A DNA stretch of 64,000 bases from a virus (taxonomy: Duplodnaviria; Caudoviricetes): the IMG/VR virus record IMGVR_UViG_3300031784_000006; one strand, given 5' to 3'. The first letter of the stretch is position 1. Each line of letters begins with the position of its first letter. The notes under the pieces were generated by a model that was not told where the DNA came from, ran no database searches, and saw only the letters and a program-made list of their open reading frames with translations. The translations under genes and the position numbers were made by a program. Shown piece after piece: positions 45,201 through 64,000 of the stretch.

Positions 45201-48200
45201 CCAACATCTTCAATTTCAGAAACAACTATTTTTCCAATATTATCCGAATATGGACTTATAATTGCCTGCTTACCCTCTGATGATGAAATTGAAACTATTT
45301 TTGGCAGACTTTTATACTGACTTCCTCTGGACAATGCTCTAAAAGAATCTATTGGACCTTTTGCTGTAAAAGAATTAGTTACATATGATAATACTGCTTC
45401 TGAAGATAGATAGGACGAAACTTCTGGTCTTTTTGCTATATTGAATGAGAAAGTGGTAGAAGTTATTCCTGAAATAATATTATTTCCAGAAAAACCGCTT
45501 TCTTCAACTGAAATATGATTATTTGATAATATATTTACCGAATCTGCTATAATTTTTATATTATTTTCAATGTTCGTATTCGATGATACTGGTTTTAGTG
45601 TATAATATAATGATTTTGGAATGTTGTCAGAAACATATAAAGTGACTTTTGCATCTGTGGATATTCCAATTCTTCCACTTTTTTTAATTTCAAATGAATT
45701 TGTAAATTTTGAGGTATTGAAAATATTTTTAAAATCAGAATCTGTATAGAAATCAAAGTCAAATGAAGATGAGGGGATTGAATTGATTAAATGGCTTAAA
45801 GAACTGTCAGAAAGATCGAATTCAACTACTTGATTTCTAAATACGGAAATTTTGGGATTTACTGCCGACAAAACACCAAAACTTTGACTCGTTAAGTCTA
45901 TACAAATAGGTTCCGATAGTTTGGAATCGTAAAACGTTTTTGATAATTTGATATTATTACCATCAATAACAACCGCATAATATATTTCATTATCCACCAA
46001 ACCACCAACAGGTGCATTTGAAGTGTAAATAAGTTTCTGGCCGTTTTCGTATCCATGGGATAGAATTGTAATCGTATCTGTTGCTATATCTACATCAGAA
46101 GACAAAAATTCCTTAGGATTTGCAACTAATCTCTTATTGTAAGAATTATATTTTATAATATGAGTTACTGTATTTTTGGAAAGACATGTTAGCGAAATAC
46201 TATTATTAGTTTCTAGCCCATGAGTGGATGAAGTTGATACTGTTACTAAATTTTTTTCAATCTTACCCAAAATAATATCATTATAATTTGTTTTAAAACT
46301 ATGTAATACTCCGGTTCCAATTCCAGTAAAATATAAAGTACTTGTTGTAACTTCACTGTTTATTCCTACAAAATTTCCATTAGAACCAATACCAATAGGA
46401 TTAGTTGCAATACCTATTAAATTATCATTCACTACGGCTGCATATACTACTTGATTATTTTCTAATTGAAATGAAGATGTACCATCTGTTGAAATTGAAA
46501 TAGATGTATCACCACCATTAGAATATATTAGAGAATCTCCTGTATATAAATTGTGGTCTGGGAGAAAAATTGTTTTTGTTGGAATAAAGAGTGATGTTCT
46601 TCCTGTTCCCGGATTACTAAAAGATAATGTATAACCTATACCAACTCCGGCAACTGTCCCCAATCCTATGGAATCATTGGGGTTAAAATAAATTTGTCTG
46701 TTATATGATGGACTGTATATGGAAGATATTATTCCAACTCGGAATTCGAATTTTCTAGATTCTTGCTTGATAAGAGAAGATATTGTATGAGCAGAACCAA
46801 CAGAATTGTCATATTCCCTAAGAACTCTTATTCTAGTTAATTCTGGTTCTATATTCAATACCTTTACTTTTTCGGAACCAATTCCTAAAATATCATTTTC
46901 TCTTAGATATGGGTAGAATATAGCTCCACCAACATCAAAATAAGTTACTATTCCGGTAGAAGATGGAGTATCAACTGAAGAAATAAGAGTTAGAATATCA
47001 GTTCTCACTCCTACTCGATATGAACCATTTAAAAAACTACCGAAAGTGTTTATACCCGTAACGTTAATTATGTCAAAATCGGAAAGACCATGTGGATTTT
47101 CAGAAAATCCTACAATCAAACCTCTCTCTATAAAATTGCTGGGAATAAATTCTACATTTGTAATTGAAGTTGTACTGGAAGAAACTTGATTAATTTCTTT
47201 TCCTTTTAATAATGAAACTTCATAAGATGCCCCTTGCCCACCTCCAGTTAGTGTGTTATCAAAGATTATTCTATCACCTACTCTATAGTCAATTCCTGAA
47301 GAGTTAATTCCAATAAAATCTATCTCTCCCCTCTTTATTCTTTTTACTGAAGAATTTTGGGGTTTTATTTTATTACTATCTAATATGAAATCGTATCTAC
47401 TGCGAGAACTTTTCAACTTATATGGGTAAGTATTTCTTAAATATTTCCCAGTATTTAAATCAAAAGTATCTTGATTTATTTTTTTGGAGAAATTATCTTC
47501 TATTGGTAATGATTTGAACTCATTTCCAATAAAATATGGGAAAATTGGTTTTCTATAATTTCGTAAATTGTCAAAAAATTCAATAGAAGAATCATTTATA
47601 GTTGAAAAATATGCATAAACTCCATTAGGATATTCTGGAGTAATACAGAATCTACCATTGAATTGATCCAAATCTCCTGAGTTTGTATACTCATAATCTT
47701 CGCAGAAAAATCCAAGCGGATAATCTGATTTATTGGGTCTATTAGATTTTTCTATCAGTGAATATCCAGATTTTAATAACTTTATTGGACCACCCTCATT
47801 CGAAGAGTAACCATATGGGCCATAAATTGGATTTCCATCATAAGCCCATCCTATTATTGGAGAGTGTATATTTGATAATATTTCTTGTCCAGAATTTAAT
47901 ATTAGGTCTGGGATAAAGGATTCTACCGAGTTTATATTACTTCCTCTTCCAACAATTCTTCTCAAACTCCTTGGCGGATATGTGTGAGTATACTGCAATC
48001 CATTATCCGAATCAATAATAATACCGTCATCATCTGAGATAGAATTTAAAGTAATATCTCTTTCTACTAAATTTATTTTCCAAGTTTTGGTAACAGATTG
48101 TAGGTTACATCCAGAACCAGATGGAATAACATTTATTGTTATTGAAGTCGAAAATCCTGTTCCTCCATCAATAACTTTTACTTCCTTAATTTGGCCATCA

Positions 48201-51200
48201 GAAACAATAGGGGTTAATATTGCTCCAGATCCTTTTCCATCACTTACAATTTCCAATGAAGGTGGAGAATTGTATTCTGTGCCTCCGTTAAAAACTAGAA
48301 CCTGGCTAATTTTACCAGAAGAAACAATAGGGAATAACTGTGCATTTTTTCCAGTTTTTAAAGTAAAATTGGGTTGCCTATTAAAGTTTATAATATCTTC
48401 TGAACCATAATTAAATCCTCCAGTTTCTATGAATACTGACTTAATTTCTCCTTTAAAAATTGGTTGTAAAGTGGCATCTAATTTGTGCGAAGTTAATGTC
48501 GATACTCCAATAACTCCAGTTATGTTTACTGTAATTGGTTCATAATTAAAAGTATGTTTTCCAGACCCAGTTGTTTTGAAATTTTCATACTGATTAGTAG
48601 CAAAATAAAAGTCATTATTTGTAGATAATCCAACTACAGCTGATCCTATACCTATAGTTGAAGAAGTTCCAACTCTAGATAACTTAAAAGAATTTTCATC
48701 TACTTCTGTAACGTAATATGATTTTCCTGAGGAAAGACCTACTATCTCTTGTTCTGTTGCGTTATATACTACAATCTCCCCAGTTTTATATCCATGCTCT
48801 GGTGCATAAACCGTGTTGGAACTAGTAATAATACCTGTTGGGAATACAGAAATTTTTCTATTCTTATATCCAGTTCCTTTATCAATAACTTTTACCAGAC
48901 CTATTTTTTTCTTGAAGATTGCTGAAGAGAATTCATGAATACCTACTCCATAAGAAGTTAAAGTAACCGTATTAATCCCCGCAAAAGCATCATCTGAGGT
49001 GGTATGTAACTTTATTGTACTGTCATCTAAGATAGAAGCATAATATGTTGATTCTGTAGTTAGTCCACCTATTGCCTGTTGATTTTTTGTTTTATAAACA
49101 ATCGCTTCAGAATCTTGGAAATTGTGGAATGTTGAAAATCCTATGGTATTATTAGTTAAGTTGACTAAACCTGAAAAATCGGTAGAATCAAAAGGTATTT
49201 TATATTCGTAAGAAATTAATTCAGATTCTACTTTTGCTCCACTTCCTCCGCCACCAGATATTGTTATTGTTGGTGGTTGTAAATAATTAAATCCACCATT
49301 AATAATCTGAATACTATCTAAATCCCCCTCAATACCACAATAACCATTAGCACCCACTCCAACCGAATCCTCAATGGACAGAACTGGTGGAGAAATAATA
49401 TCGTAATCATTTTCTGATGACAATACGTTTATTTTTTCTATAGGTCCATAAAAAATATTATTTTTTGATTTGTAATTTAAAATTTCAACACCATTTATCA
49501 GTATTCCTGTAGTTCCTGGTTTAGTTTCATATTTTTCTACAGTATCTTGTGGTTCTTTAATAGTTTTTAATAACTTCTGAGATTGTAAATCTTTATTATA
49601 AAACTCAGAATCTATAATTACATTATCTATCGCTGTACCAGAAACTTTTATATAACTATTTTTATATAAATTTTCTCTACTTCTCGCTAATTTTATTTTT
49701 GTAGAACTAATCTTTCTTACAAAATAAATTCTTTCTTCCAGTTCTTTATTAAAGTCTGCATCAAATAAATTATTTTCGATAAGCTCTGAATTTGGGACAT
49801 ATATAACAGAATTTCCTGTTAAAAAATAATGTGTTCCTATTTCCAATTCTTCTTGTTGTTTGTAACTTCCACTGAAAACATTTTTTCCATTAGTTGTTTC
49901 TAAATCCAAATCAAAGTAATTTGGAAGAGATGATGCAGATATTAAATATGTACCTTTTCTGTCTCCATAAACATTTTGAACATCTGAAGTGTAAATTTTA
50001 GAATTTGGAAAATTTTTAAATTTACTTTTAGATAAAATCTTTTCGACACTGTATACTCTAGAAGCATCTATTTGCCCCTGACCACTCACGTTAAATGATT
50101 TTGAATTTATAATCGATATAACTGAAGAATTTATAGAAGGACCATTCGTTAAATGTATGACAATTTTATCCCCTATTCTTAAAAAATTATCTTCAAAAGT
50201 CTTAAATGTATAAGAAAATGAAGAAATATCAACTAAAGATACTGATTCCACATCATAATTTATTGGAATATTAAAAAACCAATTATTTGCAGCAAATTGG
50301 GTTTCATCTTCACCGAGAGTATCTATTTTTATAATGTCATTTTCGGAAAAAAGTTTTGTGTTTGAGTTAATATTTAAATCAGATAAAACACCAGTTACTC
50401 TAAATTTTACGATATTACTCGTCCCAACACCTGCATAGGAATATGCATAAGAATCTATTCTTATATCCTGTTTTGGTGGAATAGTTTGCGAAATTCCACT
50501 ACATTCATAGAATTGAGTAAGAGATTTTGATTTATAAGTGATAACTAGAGAACTACCATTTTTTAATTTTGCAACTAAAGTTCCTTGATCAGGAAATCCT
50601 ATAGTGGAATCGACATCTATTACGCTTGAACCTATAGATACTTGGGAGGTTACTTTTGTTATTGGGTGTATTGAAAATTCTCCTTGTTCAGATGTTTCTG
50701 AATCTGGAGTATAGTCTAAACTAATAGAATAGTATTCTTTTTCACCACGAAGAATTTTTTCAATATTGTTTATTGAACCAAATGCTTTTTGGGATGTTTG
50801 AGTTTCATCTTGATATATTGTTCTATTTAAAACATCATTGACAAATTCCTCATTTTCTAATACCTCAACAACTAATCTTTTTACAACTCTATAATCAGAG
50901 TTTGATGGTATAAAAAGATAGTCTCTTGGCTTAATTACTTTTATTTCGTCGCCATAAAGTGCTTTAAATAAAATTTTAAAAGACTGGTCTGTTCCTTTCG
51001 ATGAATAGAAATCTTTGGCTTGTTTAATGAAAAGATTTTCATTTAAACCCGAATATAAAGTTCTATTTTCAAATCCTGGTGTGAATTGAGATTTTACCTT
51101 ATTAAAAAATTCACCCAAAAGTAAAGAACTGAGATTTACAACTTTAGATTGCTCTAAATGCTCAGTTATATTTGTTGATGAAAAAATTAGATTTCCTGAA

Positions 51201-51577
51201 TCATAAGATGAAACTCCACTAAATCCTCTGACACACTCTTCAAAAGTTGTATTAGTTTTTGACTTATATGTGATTATTTCGTCATCAATTTTTAAAAGTC
51301 CATACGAATCCGGAAATCCTTTGGTTGATACAACTTCGATACTAGTATCAATCAGAGTGGTTTTTGATGTTGTAACGGTACTTGTTGTTAAATTAGTTAA
51401 ATTATCAAGTTTTATATATTGATCTATATTATTAAGTATGTCAAATGCCTCACCTTTATTTTCTTGTGAAAGGTAATATGTAGATAAAAACTCTTCAACC
51501 AGAGGAAATTCTTCCTTAATAAAATCTGGTAATTGATTTTCGATTACAGAACTAATTTTAACTCTTGTCTTTACCAT
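39209..51577 (-). CDS. gp7: Baseplate wedge initiator (very long cyanophage form, 4122 aa)
   Basis: FIKQAKDFYSSKGTDQSFKILFKALYG, HSPIIGWAYDGNPIYGPYGY, DSDYYQFFSYSIK; between gp6 and gp8. Confidence 0.85.
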   Translation of the reverse strand: MVKTRVKISSVIENQLPDFIKEEFPLVEEFLSTYYLSQENKGEAFDILNNIDQYIKLDNLTNLTTSTVTTSKTTLIDTSIEVVSTKGFPDSYGLLKIDDEIITYKSKTNTTFEECVRGFSGVSSYDSGNLIFSSTNITEHLEQSKVVNLSSLLLGEFFNKVKSQFTPGFENRTLYSGLNENLFIKQAKDFYSSKGTDQSFKILFKALYGDEIKVIKPRDYLFIPSNSDYRVVKRLVVEVLENEEFVNDVLNRTIYQDETQTSQKAFGSINNIEKILRGEKEYYSISLDYTPDSETSEQGEFSIHPITKVTSQVSIGSSVIDVDSTIGFPDQGTLVAKLKNGSSLVITYKSKSLTQFYECSGISQTIPPKQDIRIDSYAYSYAGVGTSNIVKFRVTGVLSDLNINSNTKLFSENDIIKIDTLGEDETQFAANNWFFNIPINYDVESVSLVDISSFSYTFKTFEDNFLRIGDKIVIHLTNGPSINSSVISIINSKSFNVSGQGQIDASRVYSVEKILSKSKFKNFPNSKIYTSDVQNVYGDRKGTYLISASSLPNYFDLDLETTNGKNVFSGSYKQQEELEIGTHYFLTGNSVIYVPNSELIENNLFDADFNKELEERIYFVRKISSTKIKLARSRENLYKNSYIKVSGTAIDNVIIDSEFYNKDLQSQKLLKTIKEPQDTVEKYETKPGTTGILINGVEILNYKSKNNIFYGPIEKINVLSSENDYDIISPPVLSIEDSVGVGANGYCGIEGDLDSIQIINGGFNYLQPPTITISGGGGSGAKVESELISYEYKIPFDSTDFSGLVNLTNNTIGFSTFHNFQDSEAIVYKTKNQQAIGGLTTESTYYASILDDSTIKLHTTSDDAFAGINTVTLTSYGVGIHEFSSAIFKKKIGLVKVIDKGTGYKNRKISVFPTGIITSSNTVYAPEHGYKTGEIVVYNATEQEIVGLSSGKSYYVTEVDENSFKLSRVGTSSTIGIGSAVVGLSTNNDFYFATNQYENFKTTGSGKHTFNYEPITVNITGVIGVSTLTSHKLDATLQPIFKGEIKSVFIETGGFNYGSEDIINFNRQPNFTLKTGKNAQLFPIVSSGKISQVLVFNGGTEYNSPPSLEIVSDGKGSGAILTPIVSDGQIKEVKVIDGGTGFSTSITINVIPSGSGCNLQSVTKTWKINLVERDITLNSISDDDGIIIDSDNGLQYTHTYPPRSLRRIVGRGSNINSVESFIPDLILNSGQEILSNIHSPIIGWAYDGNPIYGPYGYSSNEGGPIKLLKSGYSLIEKSNRPNKSDYPLGFFCEDYEYTNSGDLDQFNGRFCITPEYPNGVYAYFSTINDSSIEFFDNLRNYRKPIFPYFIGNEFKSLPIEDNFSKKINQDTFDLNTGKYLRNTYPYKLKSSRSRYDFILDSNKIKPQNSSVKRIKRGEIDFIGINSSGIDYRVGDRIIFDNTLTGGGQGASYEVSLLKGKEINQVSSSTTSITNVEFIPSNFIERGLIVGFSENPHGLSDFDIINVTGINTFGSFLNGSYRVGVRTDILTLISSVDTPSSTGIVTYFDVGGAIFYPYLRENDILGIGSEKVKVLNIEPELTRIRVLREYDNSVGSAHTISSLIKQESRKFEFRVGIISSIYSPSYNRQIYFNPNDSIGLGTVAGVGIGYTLSFSNPGTGRTSLFIPTKTIFLPDHNLYTGDSLIYSNGGDTSISISTDGTSSFQLENNQVVYAAVVNDNLIGIATNPIGIGSNGNFVGINSEVTTSTLYFTGIGTGVLHSFKTNYNDIILGKIEKNLVTVSTSSTHGLETNNSISLTCLSKNTVTHIIKYNSYNKRLVANPKEFLSSDVDIATDTITILSHGYENGQKLIYTSNAPVGGLVDNEIYYAVVIDGNNIKLSKTFYDSKLSEPICIDLTSQSFGVLSAVNPKISVFRNQVVEFDLSDSSLSHLINSIPSSSFDFDFYTDSDFKNIFNTSKFTNSFEIKKSGRIGISTDAKVTLYVSDNIPKSLYYTLKPVSSNTNIENNIKIIADSVNILSNNHISVEESGFSGNNIISGITSTTFSFNIAKRPEVSSYLSSEAVLSYVTNSFTAKGPIDSFRALSRGSQYKSLPKIVSISSSEGKQAIISPYSDNIGKIVVSEIEDVGFDYSADKTIRPTVKLPQVLKVDTLLSFNFIGISSFGKNYTKSPDLIVIDSVRGEVIDDVDLRYNLEDKSITVVRDTAKLSDSYPIILPINNSNGIGINSITFNETTKDVTVSLATTYTSLSDYPFEVGDEVLIEGTNVGTASTLKGYNSSAYNYSLFKLTSVNPNLGGTSTVTYNLADKLSSNELPGIFDASTSYGNIVPKKFFPTFNMDLLYNNFFTNEEITSDSVKATIFDWNFSSKILKVYGNGNFKVGDIIKGSSSNTHGIIKSVDNYVGDYTIGASSIVKEGSKNETGFLNNNYQKIHDSDYYQFFSYSIKTKIDYNQWDDVVTSQNHTLGFKKFGDLIVESSTDSFSGISTEQDFGDFVGISDYSETIDFETVNDFDFAKEKTIKINSQVLSSELILKNVEASNYLQSVNNRVLAVDNISDQFNSEERSTVFSVTNTFKRNSNRSKKYIVNAYDRRFSGEKQTSLVTILHDDNFALLNQYAKVATVSDLGSFDISFIGDEANLLFYPNQYQTNDFNINFVSYDLIDSSLGISTLSFGDSVKIESVESTILPTTIGETEIVSISTSYSFAKILLQISSKTDNYYEYNEISLINNGNQFEFLEYGQFNNSAEAESSVGLGTYGISYSGSTLILSFTPNNDLNSEYITNALVFSLSDSVTSTDSIKLNTNLLKSSSVSIASTPSPQEKVVSSYDKRDFDSSYYIVCVSDRNNNRKQMSEVIVVSNTTDSHILEYGRIITDENLCQISSKITGDNVELCATPLANTSLEIRVFETTLGLGITNPGSSSPINLGAASLNVGSSIYNSTSSTVKRQFNLEYNRLPIFQREFEADNPNIVNLLDNTIKIPNHFFVTGEKVNYTYEGELSSPIGIAETSFVGVGATDKLSTELYIIKINDSTIKLASSAENALKEVPNPINILSVGVGSAHKLTSTNQNTKSLITLDNVIQSPVVSTAITASTTAQILISDDIIRLSGVSSIFAGDILKIDNEIVKIKTVGYGQTNSVLVNRAWMGTGISSHSQGTLATKLFGSYNIVNNTINFIDPPFGPTPFTSNKPNEVDWVGITTYSSFGGRIFLRSGFQGTSEEAYSTNYILDDISSGFNGIKTDFILKSNGNDVSGIVTSNGILLINQVFQTPQRLTFPNPIVGNYLLEESAGITTIKFNDGELNSTYDINSSNVPKGGIIVSVGSTKGFGYQPLVSAGGTPIISVGGTIQSISIGNSGSGYRAKSYYNIESFTNSNISIGSTLIYIENKNSIFKILEKLSNQSNFEIGIGTYITNANIVSIGSSFVTIGIGSTSQYQIPQETQVSIKVNNPSIGFVNVGIASSSSGISTVTHIGFATISNGSIVGPIEITNVGFGYTTSNLPTVIFDNPISYSNIPLVYSNASSLGFGTGATIDIVVGQGSSIIDFEIKNFGYGYGQGEILTVDTNNITGIPTSNQFSEFNITIEKTLSDTFSGWSFGDLKLFDSIDDLFNGSRRIFSLKVNNSIVSIKSKLGSPIDIQSCLLVFLNNVLQVPGNSYTFDGGSSISFSEPPKVGDICTILFYEGTSSVDVVPVTPIQKIKIGDSVQINDDTFNFLSQDSRTVTDILSVDSIRTNNYGGPGITENESLLRPMTLYRQREDIFVNGKEVTKDRIQIEPLIQPTTNIIQTVSLASTEIHVESVRTFFDSKKEYITGSEPQNKIIIVSQDNIISAAATAIISPVGIVSSILITEGGSGYDPQAVPDITIQNPIGFGSEFAPRVRTIVSAAGTVSSVNIDFVGSGYTTTKPPIVLIEPPSPVTEVIDNITYKGDFGTIVGYGQTMVGIQKYKIFDLYIPDDSTLRDQSIVGIAITISQIEVGDYFVIKDSVVSISTDSYPSYRNDGSLIGISTQFIDSIYQVSNIQILNSNIIGIGTTYIKRVFVKSDDSSSVGLSTIGLGSSTITFDSTYYTWDYFDTSSLTSYSTIYYGGEYTWGKLTDINRINPKQFNSYGINGITTSASVIRVNPLKYNNYS

Positions 51578-55945: not shown

Positions 55946-56004
55946 AAGTTAAAATAACCTTCAACATCAATTTTAACAGTCTATATATGCTTTTGTCAAT
56001 TTAC

Positions 56005-56521: not shown

Positions 56522-56550
56522 AGCATAACATAAGTGCCCCTCAGTGTCAA
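56522..56550 (-). promoter_or_regulatory. sigma70-type promoter embedded in a hairpin
   Basis: TTGACA-17 nt-TATGCT; GTGCCCCT/AGGGGCAC inverted repeat spans the -35. Confidence 0.7.
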
Positions 56551-56575
56551 CCAAGGGGCACACAGTTAGACTATA

Positions 56576-56878: not shown

Positions 56879-57136
56879 CTAGAAATCAAACACGTCAGAG
56901 TTAATCTGAATCACGTTAACTTTCGGGTCCTTGAATGATACTCCATCAGGCGTCTTTAGTGAGTTGAAAGAACACGCCTCTAGTGCATCTACGAAGTCTT
57001 CATAGTTACCTGCTTCCATCGCAAGGTGATACAAACCCTCATCATTGTTAATCCAGAGAGCAACATTCCAGGTCTCATAATTCTCCCAACCATTATACTC
57101 AGTGGAGAGAATGTTGCGTTGATAAGTGGTAGTCAT
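56879..57136 (-). CDS. Early hypothetical protein
   Basis: 85 aa, YNGWENYETWNVALWINNDEGLY motif; first gene after repeat copy 1. Confidence 0.75.
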   Translation of the reverse strand: MTTTYQRNILSTEYNGWENYETWNVALWINNDEGLYHLAMEAGNYEDFVDALEACSFNSLKTPDGVSFKDPKVNVIQINSDVFDF

Positions 57137-57207
57137 CTGTGAGTGGTTGTCCTTACACTATGGGGACAATCTCAGGGGCCCAATAATACTCACTCAGTCG
57201 GTATGAG

Positions 57208-57381
57208 TTACCACTTATCAGGACGGCTGAGGTCTTCCACATAAGCTGACACACGCTCAGCTGGTTCCAATTTGAATACTTTATCCCAGTCAAGTTGATG
57301 CGGGTCGAAGTCTTCGAAGACCTCAAGCTCTAGAGTGACCCTATAACGCTGCTTCTGGGCTTGGCGATACGCAACCGACAT
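57208..57381 (-). CDS. Early hypothetical protein (57 aa)
   Basis: Hand translation MSVAYRQAQKQRYRVTLELEVFEDFDPHQLDWDKVFKLEPAERVSAYVEDLSRPDKW. Confidence 0.7.
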   Translation of the reverse strand: MSVAYRQAQKQRYRVTLELEVFEDFDPHQLDWDKVFKLEPAERVSAYVEDLSRPDKW

Positions 57382-57410
57382 AAGTGTGCTCCGTGAGTGT
57401 TACTGTGGCT

Positions 57411-57439
57411 ACTATAAGATGCTGGGGGCAATGTGTCAA
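57411..57439 (-). promoter_or_regulatory. sigma70-type early promoter
   Basis: TTGACA-17 nt-TATAGT, 30 nt upstream of the ATG at 57381. Confidence 0.8.
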
Positions 57440-57513
57440 GACCTTGGGTGTATTTATGAGGGGTGTTGATATTTTATGAGGGTGATTGTGGGGATTTGGA
57501 AACGTCGGGGTGC

Positions 57514-57542
57514 TTGACATTTTGGAGAGTGTGTGATAGCTT
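57514..57542 (+). promoter_or_regulatory. sigma70-type promoter on plus strand, divergent from 57411-57439
   Basis: TTGACA-17 nt-TAGCTT; no credible plus-strand ORF follows. Confidence 0.55.
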
Positions 57543-57562
57543 GCACGCAAAGATCACAAGAC

Positions 57563-57660
57563 CTAGAAGGATTTAAAAGGCATAAGTTACGGGGTCTAGA
57601 AGGATTTAAAAGGGCTTTATTCCACAGATTCCACAAGCTTTTCCACAAGGCTGTTGAAAA
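57563..57660. repeat. Two 18-bp direct repeats followed by four DnaA-box-like 9-mers (candidate origin)
   Basis: CTAGAAGGATTTAAAAGG at 57563 and 57596; TATTCCACA 57618, GATTCCACA 57627, TTTTCCACA 57639, reverse TTTTCAACA 57652-57660. Confidence 0.6.
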
Positions 57661-57734
57661 CTCAGCTATATTTAAAAAAGGCTTTATTAAACGTTTTAAT
57701 ACATTTTTGACACTAAATCACGTTTTTAGGCATT

Positions 57735-57760
57735 AAAAAAGAGGGGTTAGATCCCCTCTC
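57735..57760 (-). terminator. Intrinsic terminator closing the early cassette region
   Basis: GAGGGG-ATCTAA-CCCCTC followed by TTTTTT on minus strand. Confidence 0.8.
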
Positions 57761-57769
57761 TATGTGTAT

Positions 57770-58006
57770 TCAATCAAGTGCTAATCGGTAACGAGCATAA
57801 TCCTCTGCATCGCTACGTTTGCGGAATCGTGCTTCTTCACCTTCAAATCGTAGAGGCAAATACCTATACTTCTTGCCTTCCTTCGTCATAACAATTCGGG
57901 AGAATAGGTGCAGTGAGTAACTACCATCCTCACTTCTTTCCTTCTCTTTCTTTACAATGAAGGGGAGAACTTGTTGATCGTTGAATGATGCTTTGGAGAG
58001 TAACAT
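57770..58006 (-). CDS. Early hypothetical protein
   Basis: 78 aa ORF ending just before the terminator. Confidence 0.6.
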   Translation of the reverse strand: MLLSKASFNDQQVLPFIVKKEKERSEDGSYSLHLFSRIVMTKEGKKYRYLPLRFEGEEARFRKRSDAEDYARYRLALD

Positions 58007-58037
58007 TTTGGAAAAAAGTATAATGAACTGGAGTGAA

Positions 58038-58175
58038 TCAGTATGTCATAATGGTTGCAATCGTTCCTGCTCGTGTATAGAAATCAACCATTCTTTCTGC
58101 TTCATTGTAGGTACTGAAACCTTGAAACTTCCATCCTTGAGAGTAAGGACAAAACCAGCGAATCGTTGTTCTCAT
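58038..58175 (-). CDS. Small early protein, paralog of 58172..58306
   Basis: Hand translation MRTTIRWFCPYSQGWKFQGFSTYNEAERMVDFYTRAGTIATIMTY. Confidence 0.65.
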   Translation of the reverse strand: MRTTIRWFCPYSQGWKFQGFSTYNEAERMVDFYTRAGTIATIMTY

Positions 58176-58306
58176 TGTGTTACTAATTCAGCAGGACTAC
58201 CACACGATTTATAGAACTCTATCATGCGTTGTGCTTCATCAAGTGTAGAGAATGATTGCGTTCTCCATTGTTGTTGATAAGGCGTAAAGTAGCGAATGGT
58301 GAACAT
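58172..58306 (-). CDS. Small early protein, paralog of 58038..58175
   Basis: Hand translation MFTIRYFTPYQQQWRTQSFSTLDEAQRMIEFYKSCGSPAELVTQ. Confidence 0.7.
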   Translation of the reverse strand: MFTIRYFTPYQQQWRTQSFSTLDEAQRMIEFYKSCGSPAELVTQ

Positions 58307-58578
58307 CAGAACTTATCCATCCATTGTTGAATCTTTTGCAGTGCAGTTGGCTCATCATTGCACTTACACTTGCGGAACTTGGTTGTATTCAAACCTTTTG
58401 AAATCAGTTCCAGTTTGCCATCAGCAAGACAGAAGATTCCATATCGTGAGTTATGGAAAATGTTGTTAATCCAGGAATCTTGAGTATCAGCACTGACCTT
58501 AAAAAAGATCGAAGTGTGATTAGCAAGAGTGCTATTGTCGATGTGGAGATAAGGGAAAGACATTTGGGAAGTGCTCAT
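58306..58578 (-). CDS. Early hypothetical protein
   Basis: 90 aa; ATG lies inside repeat copy 2, alternative start at 58563. Confidence 0.7.
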   Translation of the reverse strand: MSTSQMSFPYLHIDNSTLANHTSIFFKVSADTQDSWINNIFHNSRYGIFCLADGKLELISKGLNTTKFRKCKCNDEPTALQKIQQWMDKF

Positions 58579-58616
58579 ACTACTAGGACAATCTCAGGGG
58601 CCCAGTATTTGTTAGG

Positions 58617-58790
58617 TCAGTCGTTTGAAGTGTGAAGAATGGAGATCATCTTTTGGTAATAGTTGTCTGCTTCTACCTCACATTGATGAGATTCGTTTGC
58701 ATCTTCAATCTCATATTGTTTCATATTAAGACGATGAATAACGCTTTCTAGAAGATCAGTCAGTGCTTCAATCTTTTGTGCTTCAGTCAT
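58617..58790 (-). CDS. Early hypothetical protein (57 aa, helical)
   Basis: Hand translation MTEAQKIEALTDLLESVIHRLNMKQYEIEDANESHQCEVEADNYYQKMISILHTSND. Confidence 0.65.
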   Translation of the reverse strand: MTEAQKIEALTDLLESVIHRLNMKQYEIEDANESHQCEVEADNYYQKMISILHTSND

Positions 58791-59107
58791 TAGTTAAGCA
58801 CCATACCTTCAGTGAAAGGAACTGTGTTGCCATTATCAATCACAAACCATTCAAAGTCACGTTGAAAGATACGGGCATCATTTCCGTGAACTTTCAGAAT
58901 AGCATTGAGACGTGATTTGGTGGTAACAGTCTTATACCCACAGGTGTAAAGTTCAAGGAAGGTATCACCAATCGTTGCGATATGATTGCCATGAAGCATA
59001 ACATATGAAGCATCACGTTCGGGCGAATAAGTTACCTCAGTGTTGTCATTTTTCCAGTCTTTGCAATCACAGATTGCTTTGTTCATTTGGAGTTCAATCT
59101 TACGCAT
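58790..59107 (-). CDS. Early hypothetical protein
   Basis: 105 aa, MRKIELQMNKAI..WKNDNTEV, LHGNHIA, TTKSRLNAIL. Confidence 0.75.
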   Translation of the reverse strand: MRKIELQMNKAICDCKDWKNDNTEVTYSPERDASYVMLHGNHIATIGDTFLELYTCGYKTVTTKSRLNAILKVHGNDARIFQRDFEWFVIDNGNTVPFTEGMVLN

Positions 59108-59161
59108 GGTTGGAAGTTCAGTGGTTATACTACAGGGACAATCTCAGGGGCCCAGTTTCTA

Positions 59162-59362
59162 TCAGGCAGCGATTGCAGACTCCAGACATACCTCACGGGT
59201 TTCGAGAAGTACATAATCGAACTCAGATTCTAACTGCTTCAGGTAAGCATCTGCAGCGGAGAAGCAATCAAACAAGCGGAGAGATTTGAAGTCTTCACCT
59301 TCATAATCAATGCCACCAATTACAGCATAAACTTTAGACATTTGGAAAGCGTTGGTGTTCAT
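59162..59362 (-). CDS. Early hypothetical protein
   Basis: 66 aa; ATG inside repeat copy 4, alternative start MSKVYAV. Confidence 0.7.
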   Translation of the reverse strand: MNTNAFQMSKVYAVIGGIDYEGEDFKSLRLFDCFSAADAYLKQLESEFDYVLLETREVCLESAIAA

Positions 59363-59407
59363 ACTATAGGGACAATCTCAGGGGCCCAGTTTTTATCAAC
59401 TTTTGAT

Positions 59408-59533
59408 TTATTCTTCAGATATATGACAAAACTCCATCAAATAGTAATCAATACTGATGCCAAGTTCGATTGCTTCGTCTTTGATTTCCTCGTAAATGTT
59501 TTCAGGAATTGTATGATATTCAGTCTCAATCAT
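59408..59533 (-). CDS. Small acidic early protein (start corrected to MIETEYH)
   Basis: 41 aa; GGAGG 10-15 nt upstream; track ORF 59408..59659 overlaps another ORF. Confidence 0.6.
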   Translation of the reverse strand: MIETEYHTIPENIYEEIKDEAIELGISIDYYLMEFCHISEE

Positions 59534-59675
59534 GGTCAATTTCTCCTCCTTTGATTTCAACATTTTCAAGAATAGTGACGATAGAATTGTTTGGGGTAAG
59601 ATACTGAACTTGTAAAACATTCGGTGCAATTTCAGTCGCTCCGATAATGGTTGATGCAATCAGAAGTTCAATCAT
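59526..59675 (-). CDS. Small early protein (49 aa) with hydrophobic N-terminus
   Basis: Hand translation MIELLIASTIIGATEIAPNVLQVQYLTPNNSIVTILENVEIKGGEIDHD. Confidence 0.6.
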   Translation of the reverse strand: MIELLIASTIIGATEIAPNVLQVQYLTPNNSIVTILENVEIKGGEIDHD

Positions 59676-59782
59676 TGTGGCGAAATAATGTCTGCTACAG
59701 TGTGCAATGCGCTTGCAGTAGTGTTGCGAACTCCAGGTGATAAAATACTCGCAACGATGAAGATTAACAGAATTGTCTTCAA
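59672..59782 (-). CDS. Small hydrophobic peptide (36 aa, TTG start)
   Basis: Hand translation (M)KTILLIFIVASILSPGVRNTTASALHTVADIISPQ; coupled to both neighbours. Confidence 0.45.
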   Translation of the reverse strand: MKTILLIFIVASILSPGVRNTTASALHTVADIISPQ

Positions 59783-59976
59783 TTTACTACGTCGTAGCGA
59801 AGTGATTTTATGCACCATCCTGTATTGTTTGTGATAACATCTGCAAGACAATCCTCACCATCAGGTGAATCCCACAGACAATTCTTTGCATCATTTACAA
59901 TCTCATCTTTCTCTTCTTCAGTGAGATCTTCGTAGTCAAAATCAAACTCAATTTCAGTTACTTTGTAGAAGTTCAT
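59779..59976 (-). CDS. Early hypothetical protein
   Basis: 65 aa; first gene after repeat copy 5. Confidence 0.7.
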   Translation of the reverse strand: MNFYKVTEIEFDFDYEDLTEEEKDEIVNDAKNCLWDSPDGEDCLADVITNNTGWCIKSLRYDVVN

Positions 59977-60029
59977 TGTGGTTTCTCAGTGCTTATACTA
60001 CTAGGACAATCTCAGGGGCCCAGTTTCTA

Positions 60030-60620
60030 TCAGAACAGATTGCGACCAAAAGATCCACACAAATAAAACGCCATTCCCTTATCCTTAAGCGTCACACCTG
60101 CAAATGTCAGAGGTACATAGCGGCCGTTGGTTTTAGATGCTTTCGTGCGAATCTGCAGCAATCCGTTAGGTCCAGTGATGGTTCCTAGTTGTTTACCAGC
60201 ATCGAAAAGTGTGCGAATGCTGTTACAAATGAACTCATAATCCTCACGCAATTCTTGATAGTGCTCCGCATGAGTTTCCTCATTCAGAATAGCGGAACCC
60301 ATATAATCGTTCTCACGAGTGAATCCAACATACAGAGTTTGCTTTAGTTTCTGCCCGACTTTGCTATCATCAAACGAGACAGAATCTTCGATGATTTCAG
60401 ATAGACAATGCTTCAACTGTGTGGCAGCAATCGACTCTCCAACTGTGAAAGTCTTAATTTCCCCATCTTCCAGATCTTGCAGGTCAGAAGAGTTAGGAAC
60501 TCCCAGTGCAATTTCTAACAGTTGCCCACGAGCACCTTTGTTCTTTCCTGGTTTATCAAATGCACTGAAGTCAGTAACATTCAGTTTCGCAAATACTTCG
60601 TTCGTTGTCAGTTTTGGCAT
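60030..60620 (-). CDS. MutH/Sau3AI-like PD-(D/E)xK endonuclease
   Basis: NKGARGQLLEIALG..SDLQDLEDGEIKT parallels MutH NKGWIGVLLE.WLG..QDF...GVELKT; C-terminal LLQIRTKA..AFYL..SF parallels MutH LQIRPKA..GFYLKKNF. Confidence 0.8.
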   Translation of the reverse strand: MPKLTTNEVFAKLNVTDFSAFDKPGKNKGARGQLLEIALGVPNSSDLQDLEDGEIKTFTVGESIAATQLKHCLSEIIEDSVSFDDSKVGQKLKQTLYVGFTRENDYMGSAILNEETHAEHYQELREDYEFICNSIRTLFDAGKQLGTITGPNGLLQIRTKASKTNGRYVPLTFAGVTLKDKGMAFYLCGSFGRNLF

Positions 60621-60667
60621 CGTGGTTGTGCTCTTATACTACAAGGACAATCTCAGGGGCCCAGTTT

Positions 60668-60907
60668 CTATTGCCCAACAAGATCGTTTGCAACTTCATC
60701 ATCATAGATTTCGCGGATTTCTTCAATCAACTCATCTACAGTTTCAAACTGTTTCGTGAGGTTATCAATGAGAGTATCAAGTGCAAACTGTTCGAGAGAT
60801 TTGTAATCCATACCATCCAAAATCATCTGAGCATAGTTCTCAACAACAGTGCTAAAATCAGGAGTCATTTCAGTCATTTTGTTTGTGGGATTAGGAAGGG
60901 AAATCAT
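60668..60907 (-). CDS. Acidic early hypothetical protein
   Basis: 79 aa, YAQMILDGMDYKSLEQFALD. Confidence 0.7.
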   Translation of the reverse strand: MISLPNPTNKMTEMTPDFSTVVENYAQMILDGMDYKSLEQFALDTLIDNLTKQFETVDELIEEIREIYDDEVANDLVGQ

Positions 60908-61125
60908 TGAATAACAGTGTTCACATCAGGATTGAAAGTAACCTCATGGAGCACATCAAAATCATCACTCATCTTGACATAATTCCAGAGAGTGTCAGTC
61001 TCATCATCCACATTTTCCTGATAAAGGTGAATGAAACCGTCATCATCTTGTTTTACATAACAACCATCATAATTTTCATCATCAAATACATAACCAGATG
61101 CAATCAGTGCGTCAGTAAAAGTCAT
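60904..61125 (-). CDS. Acidic early hypothetical protein (ATG start at 61125)
   Basis: MTFTDALIASGYVFDDENYDGCYVKQD.. Confidence 0.7.
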   Translation of the reverse strand: MTFTDALIASGYVFDDENYDGCYVKQDDDGFIHLYQENVDDETDTLWNYVKMSDDFDVLHEVTFNPDVNTVIQ

Positions 61126-61127
61126 AA

Positions 61128-61301
61128 TCAATCAACAACAGAGTAACAGGCAACCCAGGAAGGAATACCCGAAAGTGCTAAAGAACCGTTGCGGTCGTCG
61201 CAATACTCTTGGGCATCATCTTCACTGTAGAAAGGTCCAACATACTCAGGAGAATTGAGTGCATTGGAATCGAATCGAACTGTGAAAGTGGTTTGTGTCA
61301 T
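61128..61301 (-). CDS. Early hypothetical protein (57 aa)
   Basis: Hand translation MTQTTFTVRFDSNALNSPEYVGPFYSEDDAQEYCDDRNGSLALSGIPSWVACYSVVD; only ATG is inside repeat copy 7. Confidence 0.65.
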   Translation of the reverse strand: MTQTTFTVRFDSNALNSPEYVGPFYSEDDAQEYCDDRNGSLALSGIPSWVACYSVVD

Positions 61302-61330
61302 ACTACAGGGACAATCTCAGGGGCCCAGTT

Positions 61331-61504
61331 TCAATAACCGTTCAGAAAGTCAGCAAGTGCTTCCTGATACTCAGCTTCAGTCTCAAAGGTACGATAACCA
61401 ATCGTGCAAGGAAAGGTACGCTTTGAAGCAGAAGCTTTAGGCAGGTCACGACACTTATCGAGAACCTGTTGCTTGTAAGGATTGGCGTTGTAGTTAGTGT
61501 TCAT
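61331..61504 (-). CDS. Early hypothetical protein (57 aa)
   Basis: Hand translation MNTNYNANPYKQQVLDKCRDLPKASASKRTFPCTIGYRTFETEAEYQEALADFLNGY; fills the interval between copies 8 and 7. Confidence 0.65.
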   Translation of the reverse strand: MNTNYNANPYKQQVLDKCRDLPKASASKRTFPCTIGYRTFETEAEYQEALADFLNGY

Positions 61505-61531
61505 ACTATAGGGACAATCTCAAGGGCCCAA

Positions 61532-61675
61532 TTACTTAAACGTTGCATTGACACCAATCACCTTTGCTGTAGGATTTCGTGCTGTTGCTGTTTCGCGGGC
61601 ATCTTTTGGGGAGTTAGCATACACTTCCTCTTTGAAGACTTTACCACCAACGTAGAGTTGAACTTCGTATTTCAT
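61532..61675 (-). CDS. Early hypothetical protein (47 aa)
   Basis: Hand translation MKYEVQLYVGGKVFKEEVYANSPKDARETATARNPTAKVIGVNATFK. Confidence 0.7.
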   Translation of the reverse strand: MKYEVQLYVGGKVFKEEVYANSPKDARETATARNPTAKVIGVNATFK

Positions 61676-61866
61676 AGTGTTTGAAACTCCTGTGCTTCTT
61701 TGATGTTAGAATTGAAAAACTTTTGGAAGATGGAATCAATCACAGGATACCATTCTTCGTTACCACTTGGGTATCCACATTCTCGTGCTTGATTGAGAAA
61801 CTTTAAGATGCAAGTTTCCTCATTAGCAGTGAACTCAACGCGATTGAAAGTGTAACCGTCAGTCAT
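61672..61866 (-). CDS. Early hypothetical protein
   Basis: 64 aa ORF coupled to neighbours. Confidence 0.65.
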   Translation of the reverse strand: MTDGYTFNRVEFTANEETCILKFLNQARECGYPSGNEEWYPVIDSIFQKFFNSNIKEAQEFQTL

Positions 61867-61868
61867 AA

Positions 61869-62144
61869 TCAGTTCACCGATTCTTGGTAGATTGACATAC
61901 CCTTACGCATAGAAATGTAGTCATCAATCATCTCACCAATCTGTTCATAAACGTAGGAAGAACCTCCTACATCACAGAGCACATCTTCAGTGAGTTGTTT
62001 AGAGAAACGCACTTCCTTATCATTAGCATCAAACTCAAAGACATCCTCTTGAGTGTATATAAACGCAGCACAACCTGCGTCTTCACCTTGTTGCTCAATC
62101 AGTTGGTTGATTGAATCACGGAGTTGGGAAAGTGTGCGGAACAT
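61869..62144 (-). CDS. Early hypothetical protein (start corrected to MFRTLSQ)
   Basis: 91 aa; track start overlaps the upstream ORF. Confidence 0.65.
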   Translation of the reverse strand: MFRTLSQLRDSINQLIEQQGEDAGCAAFIYTQEDVFEFDANDKEVRFSKQLTEDVLCDVGGSSYVYEQIGEMIDDYISMRKGMSIYQESVN

Positions 62145-62146
62145 AA

Positions 62147-62311
62147 TCAGGAATAAACAGGAATAGAGGTGATTTCTTTCCACTCTCGTGGGAAGATTTC
62201 GTTGGCAATTTTTTCGTTCAGTTTGACACAGTTGAGAGGTTTGATGTTACTTTTGCGTTGGAACTTCTCAACAGTTCCATCTCTAAACTCAACGCGAATG
62301 TTGTAAAGCAT
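62147..62311 (-). CDS. Early hypothetical protein (start corrected to MLYNIRV)
   Basis: 54 aa; begins 2 nt after the upstream stop. Confidence 0.6.
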   Translation of the reverse strand: MLYNIRVEFRDGTVEKFQRKSNIKPLNCVKLNEKIANEIFPREWKEITSIPVYS

Positions 62312-62313
62312 AA

Positions 62314-62553
62314 TCAAGCAGGAAGGATACAGAAAGTGCCACACCAACCGCGAACCCAGTTTAGAGTTTCATGGTAAGATGTGCGAGGATTGCTCATCTC
62401 CATCTTGGAACCGTTGCTAGGATTGTATGCAACAGCGACATAGAGATTGTCGCACTCTTTATCAGTGATTTGCTCAATCCACATTTGATTGACTTTACCT
62501 TCCTTCCAATTTGTGTGGTAGGAGTAGACTTCGGAAACGATGGTGTTGCTCAT
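62314..62553 (-). CDS. Early hypothetical protein
   Basis: 79 aa; ATG inside repeat copy 9. Confidence 0.65.
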   Translation of the reverse strand: MSNTIVSEVYSYHTNWKEGKVNQMWIEQITDKECDNLYVAVAYNPSNGSKMEMSNPRTSYHETLNWVRGWCGTFCILPA

Positions 62554-62586
62554 ACTATAGGGACAATCTCAAGGGCCCAGTTTCAA

Positions 62587-62841
62587 TCACCAGCGGCCTT
62601 GTTGAATGAGAATCTTTTTTATCTCAGTATAAATGAACTGACGAAGTTTAGCGTCTGTGGTGTTATCAAGAGCATAATACAGTCGATTCAGATACTCATT
62701 CTGCGTAAGACCTATGTTACCATCACCACCAATCTCATTGAGTGATGAACCTGCTTTAGCTTTGGGGCGTCCAAAGTTACCTGTGACGTTGCCAGATGTC
62801 CTCAGTTTGGGACGAATCTTTGAGAGGTTAGAGTAAGTCAT
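62587..62841 (-). CDS. Early hypothetical protein
   Basis: 84 aa, YSNLSKIRPKLRTSG..GNFG. Confidence 0.7.
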   Translation of the reverse strand: MTYSNLSKIRPKLRTSGNVTGNFGRPKAKAGSSLNEIGGDGNIGLTQNEYLNRLYYALDNTTDAKLRQFIYTEIKKILIQQGRW

Positions 62842-63020
62842 TCATCTTCCTCATAAGGGAACATTTCGTCATACTCTTCGTCTGTGAGAGTAAGATACTG
62901 AACGTTAGCATTTTTGTGCTCTTCAGCATACACCAACTGATAATGTGCGAAAGAAGAAGGGTCAGAACTAGCAAACTCTAGCAGACCATCAACAAAACAA
63001 AGGTAATTCATGTTACTCAT
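62838..63020 (-). CDS. Acidic early hypothetical protein (start corrected to MSNMNY)
   Basis: 60 aa; ATGA-coupled on both sides. Confidence 0.65.
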   Translation of the reverse strand: MSNMNYLCFVDGLLEFASSDPSSFAHYQLVYAEEHKNANVQYLTLTDEEYDEMFPYEEDE

Positions 63021-63448
63021 TTTGCGTACAGATAACCACCAGACCAATCAGCATTTTCCAGCAGATATTCACGATCCTTTATCAATCGCAAATCATAACG
63101 AACACCTTTCGCAGGAGATTTCCAGGAGGCAGACTTATACATTTCACCAGTGTTCTTATCAATGAAGCAATGAACAGAGCGAGACATACCACTGGTAATC
63201 ATAATCACTTTATGATACTTTTTACCAGTTTCAATCTCATACTCAATAGGACAAAATCCACTCTTGAGTTCATCAATACAGCGCAGATGATACTCTACAC
63301 TTTCACCACGCTCCGCAGAACGCTGATGCCCACGAATAGCGTACTGACGATAATTGTCTTTCAGTGCTTCAATCAGCAGCAGAGTATTCTTAAGGACGCT
63401 TTCTGCGATAGTTTGTTGTGCTTGTGCTTGCATCGTAGGAGTGCTCAT
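63017..63448 (-). CDS. Early hypothetical protein
   Basis: 143 aa, ETGKKYHKVI..RSVHCFIDKNTGEMYKSASWKSPAKGVRYDL; ATG inside repeat copy 10, alternative start at 63433. Confidence 0.75.
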   Translation of the reverse strand: MSTPTMQAQAQQTIAESVLKNTLLLIEALKDNYRQYAIRGHQRSAERGESVEYHLRCIDELKSGFCPIEYEIETGKKYHKVIMITSGMSRSVHCFIDKNTGEMYKSASWKSPAKGVRYDLRLIKDREYLLENADWSGGYLYAK

Positions 63449-63475
63449 ACTATAGGGACAATCTCAAGGGCCCAG

Positions 63476-64000
63476 TTACCAACTCTTTGCAAGAGTGAAG
63501 TTCAACCTGCTAAACTCTTCACGATTCACAATCTTGTAAGACCCAAACTTGTTGTGCATTACGAATCCTTCGTGATCGCTGAGTTCACCATCAATCTCAC
63601 AAGTAATGTCAGTGTCAGACTCAATGAAGCAGAACAAATCCATCTTGATAGACTCAACCAACTTCCAAAGCCGCATCAGGTTGATGTCAACATCATAATT
63701 TTCTGCAATTTCATGCTCATCCACCTCCTTACCCTCACGAACGTAGGAATTGATGATTTTTTTGAGTTCTGCTGCTTGCTTTACATTCACGAACTCACAA
63801 AGTGTGCTCATTTGCTTGGCAAACTTGCAGAAGTCTTCAATATCATCACGGAAGGGACAAATAGACACACTAGGTTGCACAAACAAGCATTTTTTAGTGC
63901 TTGCAAACTTACCCACGATAGGATGAGCTACCATCTCAGGCAGACGCTCACCAGTGTAATATGTGTGAGGGGCAATGATAATCTCCTGACGAACAATCTC
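63476..64000 (-). CDS. C-terminal part of a ligase-like (nucleotidyltransferase-fold) hypothetical protein; 5' end outside window
   Basis: Frame is open from 64000 (EIVRQEIIIAPHTYY..) into track ORF 63476..63934; ends HEGFVMHNKFGSYKIVNREEFSRLNF. Confidence 0.5.
   Translation of the reverse strand, partial: EIVRQEIIIAPHTYYTGERLPEMVAHPIVGKFASTKKCLFVQPSVSICPFRDDIEDFCKFAKQMSTLCEFVNVKQAAELKKIINSYVREGKEVDEHEIAENYDVDINLMRLWKLVESIKMDLFCFIESDTDITCEIDGELSDHEGFVMHNKFGSYKIVNREEFSRLNFTLAKSW

Follow-up and report, generated by a model that had tools for sequence, protein, structure and literature searches.

How can a start codon that lies inside a promoter-like repeat become part of a messenger RNA (mRNA)? 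This question is raised by an element of 30-40 bases that stands before small genes in IMG/VR virus record IMGVR_UViG_3300031784_000006, a Caudoviricetes sequence of 64,000 nucleotides (nt) whose whole length we call the window. In six of its ten copies there, the element supplies an ATG, here called AUG1, that begins the downstream open reading frame (ORF). The phage is a T4-like cyanomyovirus, and little is understood of how T4-like cyanophages turn on and translate their first genes. To our knowledge, Alt, Mod, MotA and AsiA, all T4 factors, are missing from these phages. Their hosts use Shine-Dalgarno pairing little. Here we report that AUG1 is a genuine start codon whose frame is maintained by selection, a conclusion that we hold with high confidence. 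Because AUG1 is a real start codon, the mRNAs that use it must either begin a few bases before the ATG or be read through from upstream copies, and its route into mRNA is narrowed to these two main models.

The embedded ATG as start codon

A search of the window for the repeat core GGGCCCYTGAGATTGTCC, with up to 3 mismatches allowed, found exactly 10 copies, against 0 expected in shuffled sequences; they lie within 57164-63473, on the minus strand throughout (Table 1). In gene sense, the full repeat reads AAACTGGGCCC(C/T)TGAGATTGTCC(N3)TAGT(A/G)T(G/A)A(G/A)CAC, with conservation extending beyond the ATG as (G/A)A(G/A)CAC. Six copies end in TAGTATG, and the A of this ATG is the first base of the ORF at 58578, 59362, 61301, 61504, 62553 and 63448. 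All six starts had been named in the original prediction, made from this stretch of DNA, and they hold; the chance of six in-frame ATGs out of six is ~0.0014. The ORFs at 61301 and 61504 encode no further Met, as had also been claimed, and contain no GTG or TTG alternative. In the ORF at 62553, the next Met is indeed at codon 24. A second in-frame ATG follows at codons 6-8 in the other three ORFs. The remaining four copies (57181, 59153, 60021 and 60662) end in TAGT(A/G)TAA and are followed by an A/C-rich leader of 15-19 nt and then an ATG. These leaders had been predicted to be free of Shine-Dalgarno sequences, and they contain no GGAG; neither GGAG nor AGGA was found in any window copy.

The element is found beyond the window. 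Its window version occurs in 13 IMG/VR stretches, with 52 copies. In the cultured phage S-SM2, 8-9 copies lie at 42.7-57.1 kb. Their upstream box differs (AAGGGGGGTCGCCTAAAGC), their 3' part, GTCCCTATAGT(A/G)T(G/A)AGCA, is shared, and four coding sequences in the GenBank entry start at the embedded ATG. SynMITS9220M01 has about 9 copies, and its GenBank coding sequences also start at the embedded ATG. With further matches in S-B05, S-B43, RN05-S and RB11-B, the carriers include at least 6 cultured phages and many uncultured relatives. An IMG/VR scan with the shared 3' part, unconstrained at the two R positions, together with the loci found earlier, gave at least 430 distinct copies (loci L001-L132, S-SM2 being L015/L016). 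The family counts given here concern 430 distinct copies among the matches listed. The core shared across lineages is (C)CTYnAAAGT-GTCCCTATAGT(A/G)T(G/A)AGCAC, which spans from ~30 nt upstream of the ATG position to ~8 nt beyond it. The 10-15 nt upstream of this core are lineage-specific (CTCTGGGGCCTT, ATAGCTCACCTC, GTTAGTTACCTC and GGGGGGACGTG; ACTGGGCCCCTG in the window) and uniform within a contig. The element is strictly intergenic and often directly follows a stop codon. We regard it as the control cassette of one T4-like cyanomyovirus clade that comprises S-SM2, SynMITS9220M01, S-B05/S-B43 and freshwater relatives, and the window phage.

The copies fall into classes by their endings, all four of which the search pattern admitted equally. 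At the two R positions of TAGT-R-T-R-A, 194 copies have A..G (TAGTATGA), 134 have G..A (TAGTGTAA), 52 have A..A (TAGTATAA) and 8 have G..G (TAGTGTGA), so that the two positions are strongly coupled. One guess at why copies of the non-ATG class prefer TAGTGTAA, which reads GUG-UAA, over TAGTATAA is avoidance of a near-cognate AUA start.

For the frame analysis, the limits of the main ORF were taken from stop codons only. Of the 194 copies with an embedded ATG, 174 (90%; binomial p=3e-60 against 1/3) have it in frame with the downstream gene and with no stop in between. The window bias is thus repeated in the wider family. At the same position in copies of the other class, GTA is in frame in 49 of 134 cases and ATA in 16 of 52 (31-37%). 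When each gene family is counted once per class, the values are 33/38 for the embedded ATG and 21/76 for the controls (Fisher p=1.7e-9). The 174 in-frame copies head 32 unrelated protein families, 12 of which have no nearby second ATG.

Gene starts also move with the type of copy. We found 18 families behind both ATG-type and non-ATG-type copies, and the start codon shifts in them. The family of the ORF at 62553 has an own-ATG form, MIVSEVY, behind a TAGTATAA or TAGTGTC copy, and a dual-ATG form, MSTTQP-M-IVSEVY. In a third form, seen in the window, L058 and L092, the second ATG is deleted, giving MSNT-IVSEVY (window), MSTN-IVSEVY and MSNP-IVSEIY; in L059 the second ATG is mutated to ATC. Four orthologues of the ORF at 61504 begin MNTN(Y/H)N..NPY at the embedded ATG (for example MNTNYNANPY), and in one orthologue, behind a TAGTGTAA copy and a 40-nt leader, the start is MTSNPY. 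The family of the ORF at 61301 includes members with the embedded ATG only (MSTQTFTV, MTNTYTV and MTQTTFTVRF), a dual form (MSTQQ-M-TFTV(RF)) and a downstream-ATG form (MSIYVRF). Orthologues of the ORF at 63448 read MSNTTMQAQ and MNTTQMNAQ. The second ATG, at codons 5-7, was lost in several families, in which the embedded ATG is then the sole start. The same gene is also found with and without the element. The L003 orthologue of the window gene at 63020 has a repeat copy ahead of it (L003 3871) with the embedded ATG at the same position (ATGAGCACTCCAATG); the window gene has no repeat and keeps the homologous ATG, which overlaps the upstream stop as ATGA. Conservation among homologues therefore bears out the embedded Met, since relatives either start a few residues further in or retain the embedded Met alone.

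From the frame statistics, the moving starts and the unequal endings, we conclude that ribosomes see and use AUG1. It is very improbable that the in-frame ATGs are incidental, with the real starts lying downstream or the small ORFs not being genes: the second ATGs (three of the six window copies; 59% of in-frame copies in the family) and the automatic nature of GenBank start calls would fit such a reading, but it does not account for 174 of 194 copies in frame against about one third in controls, for AUG1-only orthologues of proteins conserved across phages, or for the lack of GTG and TTG alternatives at 61301 and 61504. The element can be used to correct or confirm where dozens of small early genes are said to start.

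In 20 of the 32 gene families, codons 5-7 include a second in-frame ATG. We regard the peptide between AUG1 and this ATG (MSTTQ, MNTTQ, MSNTT and the like) as a translated A/C-rich leader. Two N-terminal forms, which would differ by a short Ser/Thr/Asn-rich peptide, are possible. The two isoforms raised by the original prediction fit these second ATGs, and they stand as possible forms at most. Out-of-frame AUG1 copies were considered as upstream ORFs that end on the main ATG (ATGA). This arrangement was found in 9 of 20 such copies and 27 of 120 controls (p=0.05), and we make no use of it, as ATGA is common anyway.

Candidate transcription starts

Two overlapping hexamers of the element resemble a -10 box. 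One is TAGTRT itself, and the other lies 8 nt upstream of it (GAGATT in the window and nAAAGT in relatives). We give a transcription start upstream of AUG1, judged from the sequence patterns described below, about an even chance. In this model, the working -10 would be the upstream hexamer, followed by a GC-rich discriminator, GTCCCT, and transcription would begin at the purine directly before TAGT, ~5 nt ahead of the ATG. The AUG1 mRNA would then read 5'-AUAGU-AUG, near-leaderless, with no Shine-Dalgarno sequence and with a CA-rich stretch next. Copies ending in TAGTGTAA or TAGTATAA would instead yield an unstructured A/C-rich leader of ~22 nt, and the second in-frame AUG at codons 5-7 of many genes would lie at a normal leader distance. 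A promoter fused to the first mRNA bases, with the upstream -10, is our best explanation as a whole, held with slightly less than even confidence.

The upstream hexamer has A at position 2 and T at position 6 in 97% of copies each, in all lineages, and its position 1 varies. The base 7 nt after it, just before TAGT, is a purine in more than 98% of copies. In copies of the non-ATG class, the ATG lies 28-29 nt after the upstream hexamer and 15-16 nt after TAGTRT, and second ATGs are commonest at codon 5, 26 nt past that upstream hexamer. At ordinary TTGACA-N16-18-TAnnnT promoters of the same contigs, the distance from -10 to ATG is 21-29 nt, peaking at 23, with a further group at 27-29 and very few at 13-16. 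The upstream hexamer is favored as the -10 because the ATG distance of the non-ATG copies matches that of ordinary promoters. The original prediction had taken TAGTAT as the -10, and these observations make that premise doubtful.

Structure of the predicted RNA points the same way. Among long-leader copies, stems with their 5' arm in the 6 nt after TAGTRT number 13, against 5.5 in shuffled sequences (maximum 12 in 300 shuffles). These arms favor an upstream start: with TAGTRT as the -10, their bases would lie outside the transcript. In the window copies, the element RNA folds less than shuffled sequences do (z=+2.7 and +1.95), in line with an open initiation region. Strong hairpins of 10-15 base pairs (bp) follow some copies, in the long-leader loci L076, L029 and L078 and also in L110/L099, L003:6386 and L015 (S-SM2 57130). 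They begin at or just after TAGTGT, with a T-run 5-10 nt later, and could be attenuator-like terminators between element and gene.

Several points weigh against an upstream start. By sequence, TAGTRT is the better -10, as its position 1 is an invariant T and that of the upstream hexamer is T, C or G. A G conserved at 90% lies 17 nt upstream of TAGTRT, at the place that the TTG of a -35 would occupy. In S-SM2, the upstream hexamer is TAAAGC, with C at the key last position, in 5 of 8 copies, including all three of the ATG class. The TAGTRT hexamer itself is paired in leader hairpins no more often than in shuffles, also when stems of 5-6 bp are considered. A leader of 5 nt suits neither of the two known routes of initiation well, being not quite leaderless and not canonical, and extra 5' bases lower leaderless translation in Escherichia coli and Caulobacter. 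The RNA library with the phage consists of short contigs that bridge two copies and is uninformative on starts. The word early, as applied to genes headed by the repeat, is a putative label. We note that copies with a damaged TAGTRT and an intact upstream hexamer (TACTAG, TAATAG, TATTAG and TGATGG, in the window lineage) would seem to favor an upstream start but were not counted, since the search pattern contained the upstream hexamer and biases the comparison.

The main alternative takes TAGT(A/G)T as a host-type -10 with a weak -35 (cTGGGn) 17 nt upstream and a local start ~7 nt downstream, past AUG1. We consider it rather unlikely, with an appreciable share of the probability. Under this model, AUG1 would be reached solely on read-through RNA from upstream copies, and each promoter would mainly serve the next cassette. 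Dual-ATG genes would use their second ATG locally, with a leader of ~6 nt, and their first ATG on read-through RNA. If it is true that the start lies past the ATG, this would be an unusual staggered arrangement.

The TAGTRT model is favored by the invariant T, A and T at positions 1, 2 and 6, by the conserved G, which would be at -33 with 17-nt spacing, and by an A-tract at -37 to -43. In the window, the conserved block would extend from -36 to about +1 of a promoter of this kind. TAGTRT is intact in 8 of 8 S-SM2 copies, whereas the upstream hexamer there often ends in C. A terminator scan found no intrinsic terminators between cassettes, and contigs of the RNA library bridge two copies; therefore, read-through is possible. 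Selection for an in-frame AUG1 is also predicted by this model.

However, the leaders would be just 8-9 nt in the non-ATG class or ~6 nt for the second ATG, compared with the 21-29 nt between -10 and ATG at ordinary promoters, and 12 gene families would have no translatable RNA from their own promoter. The 12 invariant bases of the spacer (AAAGTGTCCCTA) would be unexplained, and the supposed -35 varies by lineage. Copies of the non-ATG class favor TAGTGT over the better -10, TAGTAT, by 134 to 52. The leader hairpins begin in bases upstream of the start site that the model requires, and a purine lies 7 nt after TAGTRT in only 3 of 10 window copies. Copies at divergent junctions, at which read-through would be impossible, were looked for among the loci. 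The sole cases were opposite-strand insertions of homing endonucleases (L023 and L119), where read-through is conceivable. The inserted ORFs, of HNH type and GIY-YIG type, lie between cassettes of related phages (L023 2289-2828 and L119 6824-7840, both minus strand), directly upstream of repeat copies.

It is improbable that the element is not a promoter at all and acts at the RNA level, in a long polycistronic early transcript driven by a small number of ordinary promoters. It would then be a processing site, for example one at which host RNase E cuts single-stranded UAUAGU, and/or a ribosome entry site that positions AUG1 without a Shine-Dalgarno sequence. Cyanophages reportedly make use of host RNase E, as Stazic et al. 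are said to have described in 2011 and 2016. The conserved core does take in the start codon and the first codons, the element RNA is unusually unstructured, ordinary TTGACA promoters lie inside the array, and contigs of the RNA library cross the element. These contigs come from a freshwater metatranscriptome. Three short ones fall on the window and two of them bridge copies (57143-57314 and 58498-58677); they cannot reveal starts, and DNA carry-over is possible. Against the RNA-level model, the two overlapping TAnnnT-like hexamers and the upstream A-tract suit a promoter and not an RNase site. The strictly intergenic position, often directly after a stop codon, also speaks against it, as does the lineage-specific upstream box, whose uniformity per genome resembles DNA-level concerted evolution. 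An Rfam search of the element gave no relevant family.

Some copies stand in tandem with ordinary promoters. In S-SM2 (GU071095 51945-52029, L016), L116 and L057, a consensus promoter, TTGACA/TTTACA-N17-TATACT/TATTAT, stands ~20 nt downstream of the repeat, and a helicase gene comes next. A processing site would serve no purpose there; therefore, a separate promoter class fits better than an RNA site. Of the routes named by the original prediction, read-through and an RNA-level role are possible to the degrees just given, while non-AUG leaderless initiation is without support. The rest of the probability goes to both promoters acting in tandem, or to something else.

A broader proposal can be made only tentatively. 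In this clade, promoter and start codon may form one fused module for early genes, which the host polymerase would read without modification through an unusual -10 (nAAAGT with a GC-rich discriminator). The mRNAs would have leaders of 2-5 nt and no Shine-Dalgarno sequence, a choice between AUG1 and a second AUG 4-6 codons later would yield two N-terminal forms of many early proteins, and the module would double as a joint for cassette exchange. Such an element could be a compact Shine-Dalgarno-free expression module for picocyanobacteria.

Comparison with known systems

The closest described systems are the PeSL cassettes of RB49/phi1, T4/PST and KVP40/nt-1 (Arbiol et al. 2010, PMC2839356; Comeau et al. 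2014, PMC4122927). Like PeSL, the present element is a repeated composite control sequence that occurs in plastic early regions of T4-like genomes, ahead of small variable genes. Each is uniform per genome and has the start codon at its 3' end, and in both, cassettes are gained or lost at repeats between close relatives, as between the window and L003. PeSL consists of a stem-loop and a near-consensus TTGACA-N17-TATAAT, followed by a Shine-Dalgarno sequence and then the ATG. The present element lacks a conserved stem-loop, a Shine-Dalgarno sequence and a consensus -35, and its ATG is placed within a -10-like hexamer. In addition, its 30-nt core is kept across the whole clade, whereas PeSL is kept within one phage pair. 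A hairpin of the PeSL type (GGG..CCC) was considered and rejected; it is unconserved between lineages, and the window copies fold worse than shuffles. The lineage variants TAGCTCACC.. and TTAGTTACC.. contain no arm complementary to GTCCC. As for a -35, the candidate for one -10 hexamer is cTGGGn (2-3 of 6), and that for the other is unconserved.

A non-sigma70 regulatory element of early genes is said to have been described by Doron et al. in 2016 in cyanophages Syn9 and P-TIM40. That element and the present one are alike in being non-host-like sequences before early genes of T4-like cyanophages that have host-like promoters elsewhere. However, scans of the Syn9 and P-TIM40 genomes with a weight matrix and with patterns found nothing above control. 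The present core is missing from both, and the two elements are at best functional counterparts in different clades.

Promoters of leaderless mRNAs, such as PRM for lambda cI and those of many Mycobacterium and Deinococcus genes (PMC3898074, PMC4007540), share with the element a position too near the ATG for a ribosome-binding leader, and translation that is independent of Shine-Dalgarno pairing. The -10 of true leaderless genes ends 6-8 nt before the A of the ATG. In contrast, the end of the upstream hexamer is 11 nt from the ATG, for a predicted leader of 2-5 nt, and TAGTAT overlaps the ATG by 2 nt. T4 middle promoters (a MotA box at -30 and a sigma70 -10) also combine a -10-type hexamer with a conserved non-sigma70 upstream sequence, but the conserved block of the element adjoins or overlaps the -10 and start region rather than lying at -30. 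Cyanomyoviruses lack motA and asiA (PMC2984593).

Three other candidates were rejected. A T7-type promoter was suggested by ACTATAGGGACA, which matches a promoter of Vibrio phage ICP3 at 22/24 positions (E=0.5) on the strand opposite to all genes. We reject this reading because the match faces away from the genes and is within chance, and because the window is from a T4-like myovirus. Literature matches to the core sequence were T7-promoter oligos. By eye, neither a sigma54-type -24/-12 promoter nor an NtcA box fits in spacing or sequence.

Ordinary promoters, cassettes and the phage

The large ORFs of the window are all on the minus strand and all T4-type (Table 1). Its major capsid protein is 82% identical to those of the Synechococcus phages S-B05, S-B43, RN05-S and RB11-B and 77-79% identical to those of S-SCSM1, SynMITS9220M01, P-TIM68 and S-SM2. 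The T4-type structural genes and the capsid identities therefore identify the window as a T4-like cyanomyovirus. Its hosts are probably freshwater or estuarine picocyanobacteria. The repeat array of small genes comes after the structural block, and with at least 400 distinct copies known, the element marks such early-gene arrays in metagenomic contigs.

Table 1 Repeat copies, promoters and T4-type genes of the window. Where an embedded ATG is present, the position of its A is given.
Feature	Position	Strand	Remarks
Repeat, embedded ATG (A 63448)	63441..63477	minus	143-aa ORF 63017..63448; second in-frame ATG at codon 6
Gene start without repeat (ATGAGTAACATG)	63011..63020	minus	First ATG overlaps TGA stop of upstream ORF (ATGA)
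Repeat, embedded ATG (A 62553)	62546..62582	minus	79-aa ORF 62314..62553; embedded ATG is sole start
Repeat, embedded ATG (A 61504)	61497..61533	minus	57-aa ORF 61331..61504
Repeat, embedded ATG (A 61301)	61294..61330	minus	57-aa ORF 61128..61301
Repeat ending TAGTATAA	60630..60666	minus	15-nt A/C-rich leader; ATG 60620; 196-aa ORF 60030..60620
Repeat ending TAGTATAA	59989..60025	minus	18-nt leader; ATG 59976; ORF 59779..59976
Repeat, embedded ATG (A 59362)	59355..59391	minus	66-aa ORF 59162..59362; second in-frame ATG at codon 8
Repeat ending TAGTATAA	59121..59157	minus	19-nt leader; ATG 59107; ORF 58790..59107
Repeat, embedded ATG (A 58578)	58571..58607	minus	90-aa ORF 58306..58578; second in-frame ATG at codon 6
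Ordinary sigma70-type promoter, TTGACA-17-TATAGT	57411..57439	minus	Within array; ATG 57381, 29 nt after -10; ruler for normal geometry
Repeat ending TAGTGTAA	57149..57185	minus	18-nt leader; ATG 57136; ORF 56879..57136
Ordinary TTGACA-N17/18-TAnnnT promoters	55970-55999, 56522-56550	minus	Just downstream of array
Baseplate-wedge giant	39209-51577	minus	4122 aa
Terminase	18694-20340	minus	
Tail sheath	16179-18380	minus	
Portal gp20	13781-15478	minus	
Major capsid protein gp23	8026-9453	minus	
Baseplate proteins, gp8-like and gp6-like		minus	

Ordinary promoters in related contigs are followed by GGAG-type ribosome sites, and the repeat-headed genes have none. Two distinct promoter-plus-translation designs thus coexist in this phage group. 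Downstream of the array, a GC-rich 12-bp hairpin from the terminator scan overlaps a TTGACA promoter-like site (56534-56561, minus strand).

Gene order is common to the window and L003/L005, and whole cassettes differ between them. The 196-aa ORF at 60030-60620, on the minus strand between two repeat copies, behaves as a single-gene cassette, since it is missing from the orthologous array of L003. The L003 orthologue of the ORF at 59107 has an identical layout of repeat and leader, and the layout of the copy at 57149..57185 is identical in L001.

The 5' edge of the conserved block is the stop of the preceding gene in most copies (for example at 63478-63490 and 62583-62595 in the window). This stop is very often TGA and often doubled (TGATAG, TGATTGA), and in many copies it forms TTGA 16-17 nt upstream of the upstream hexamer.

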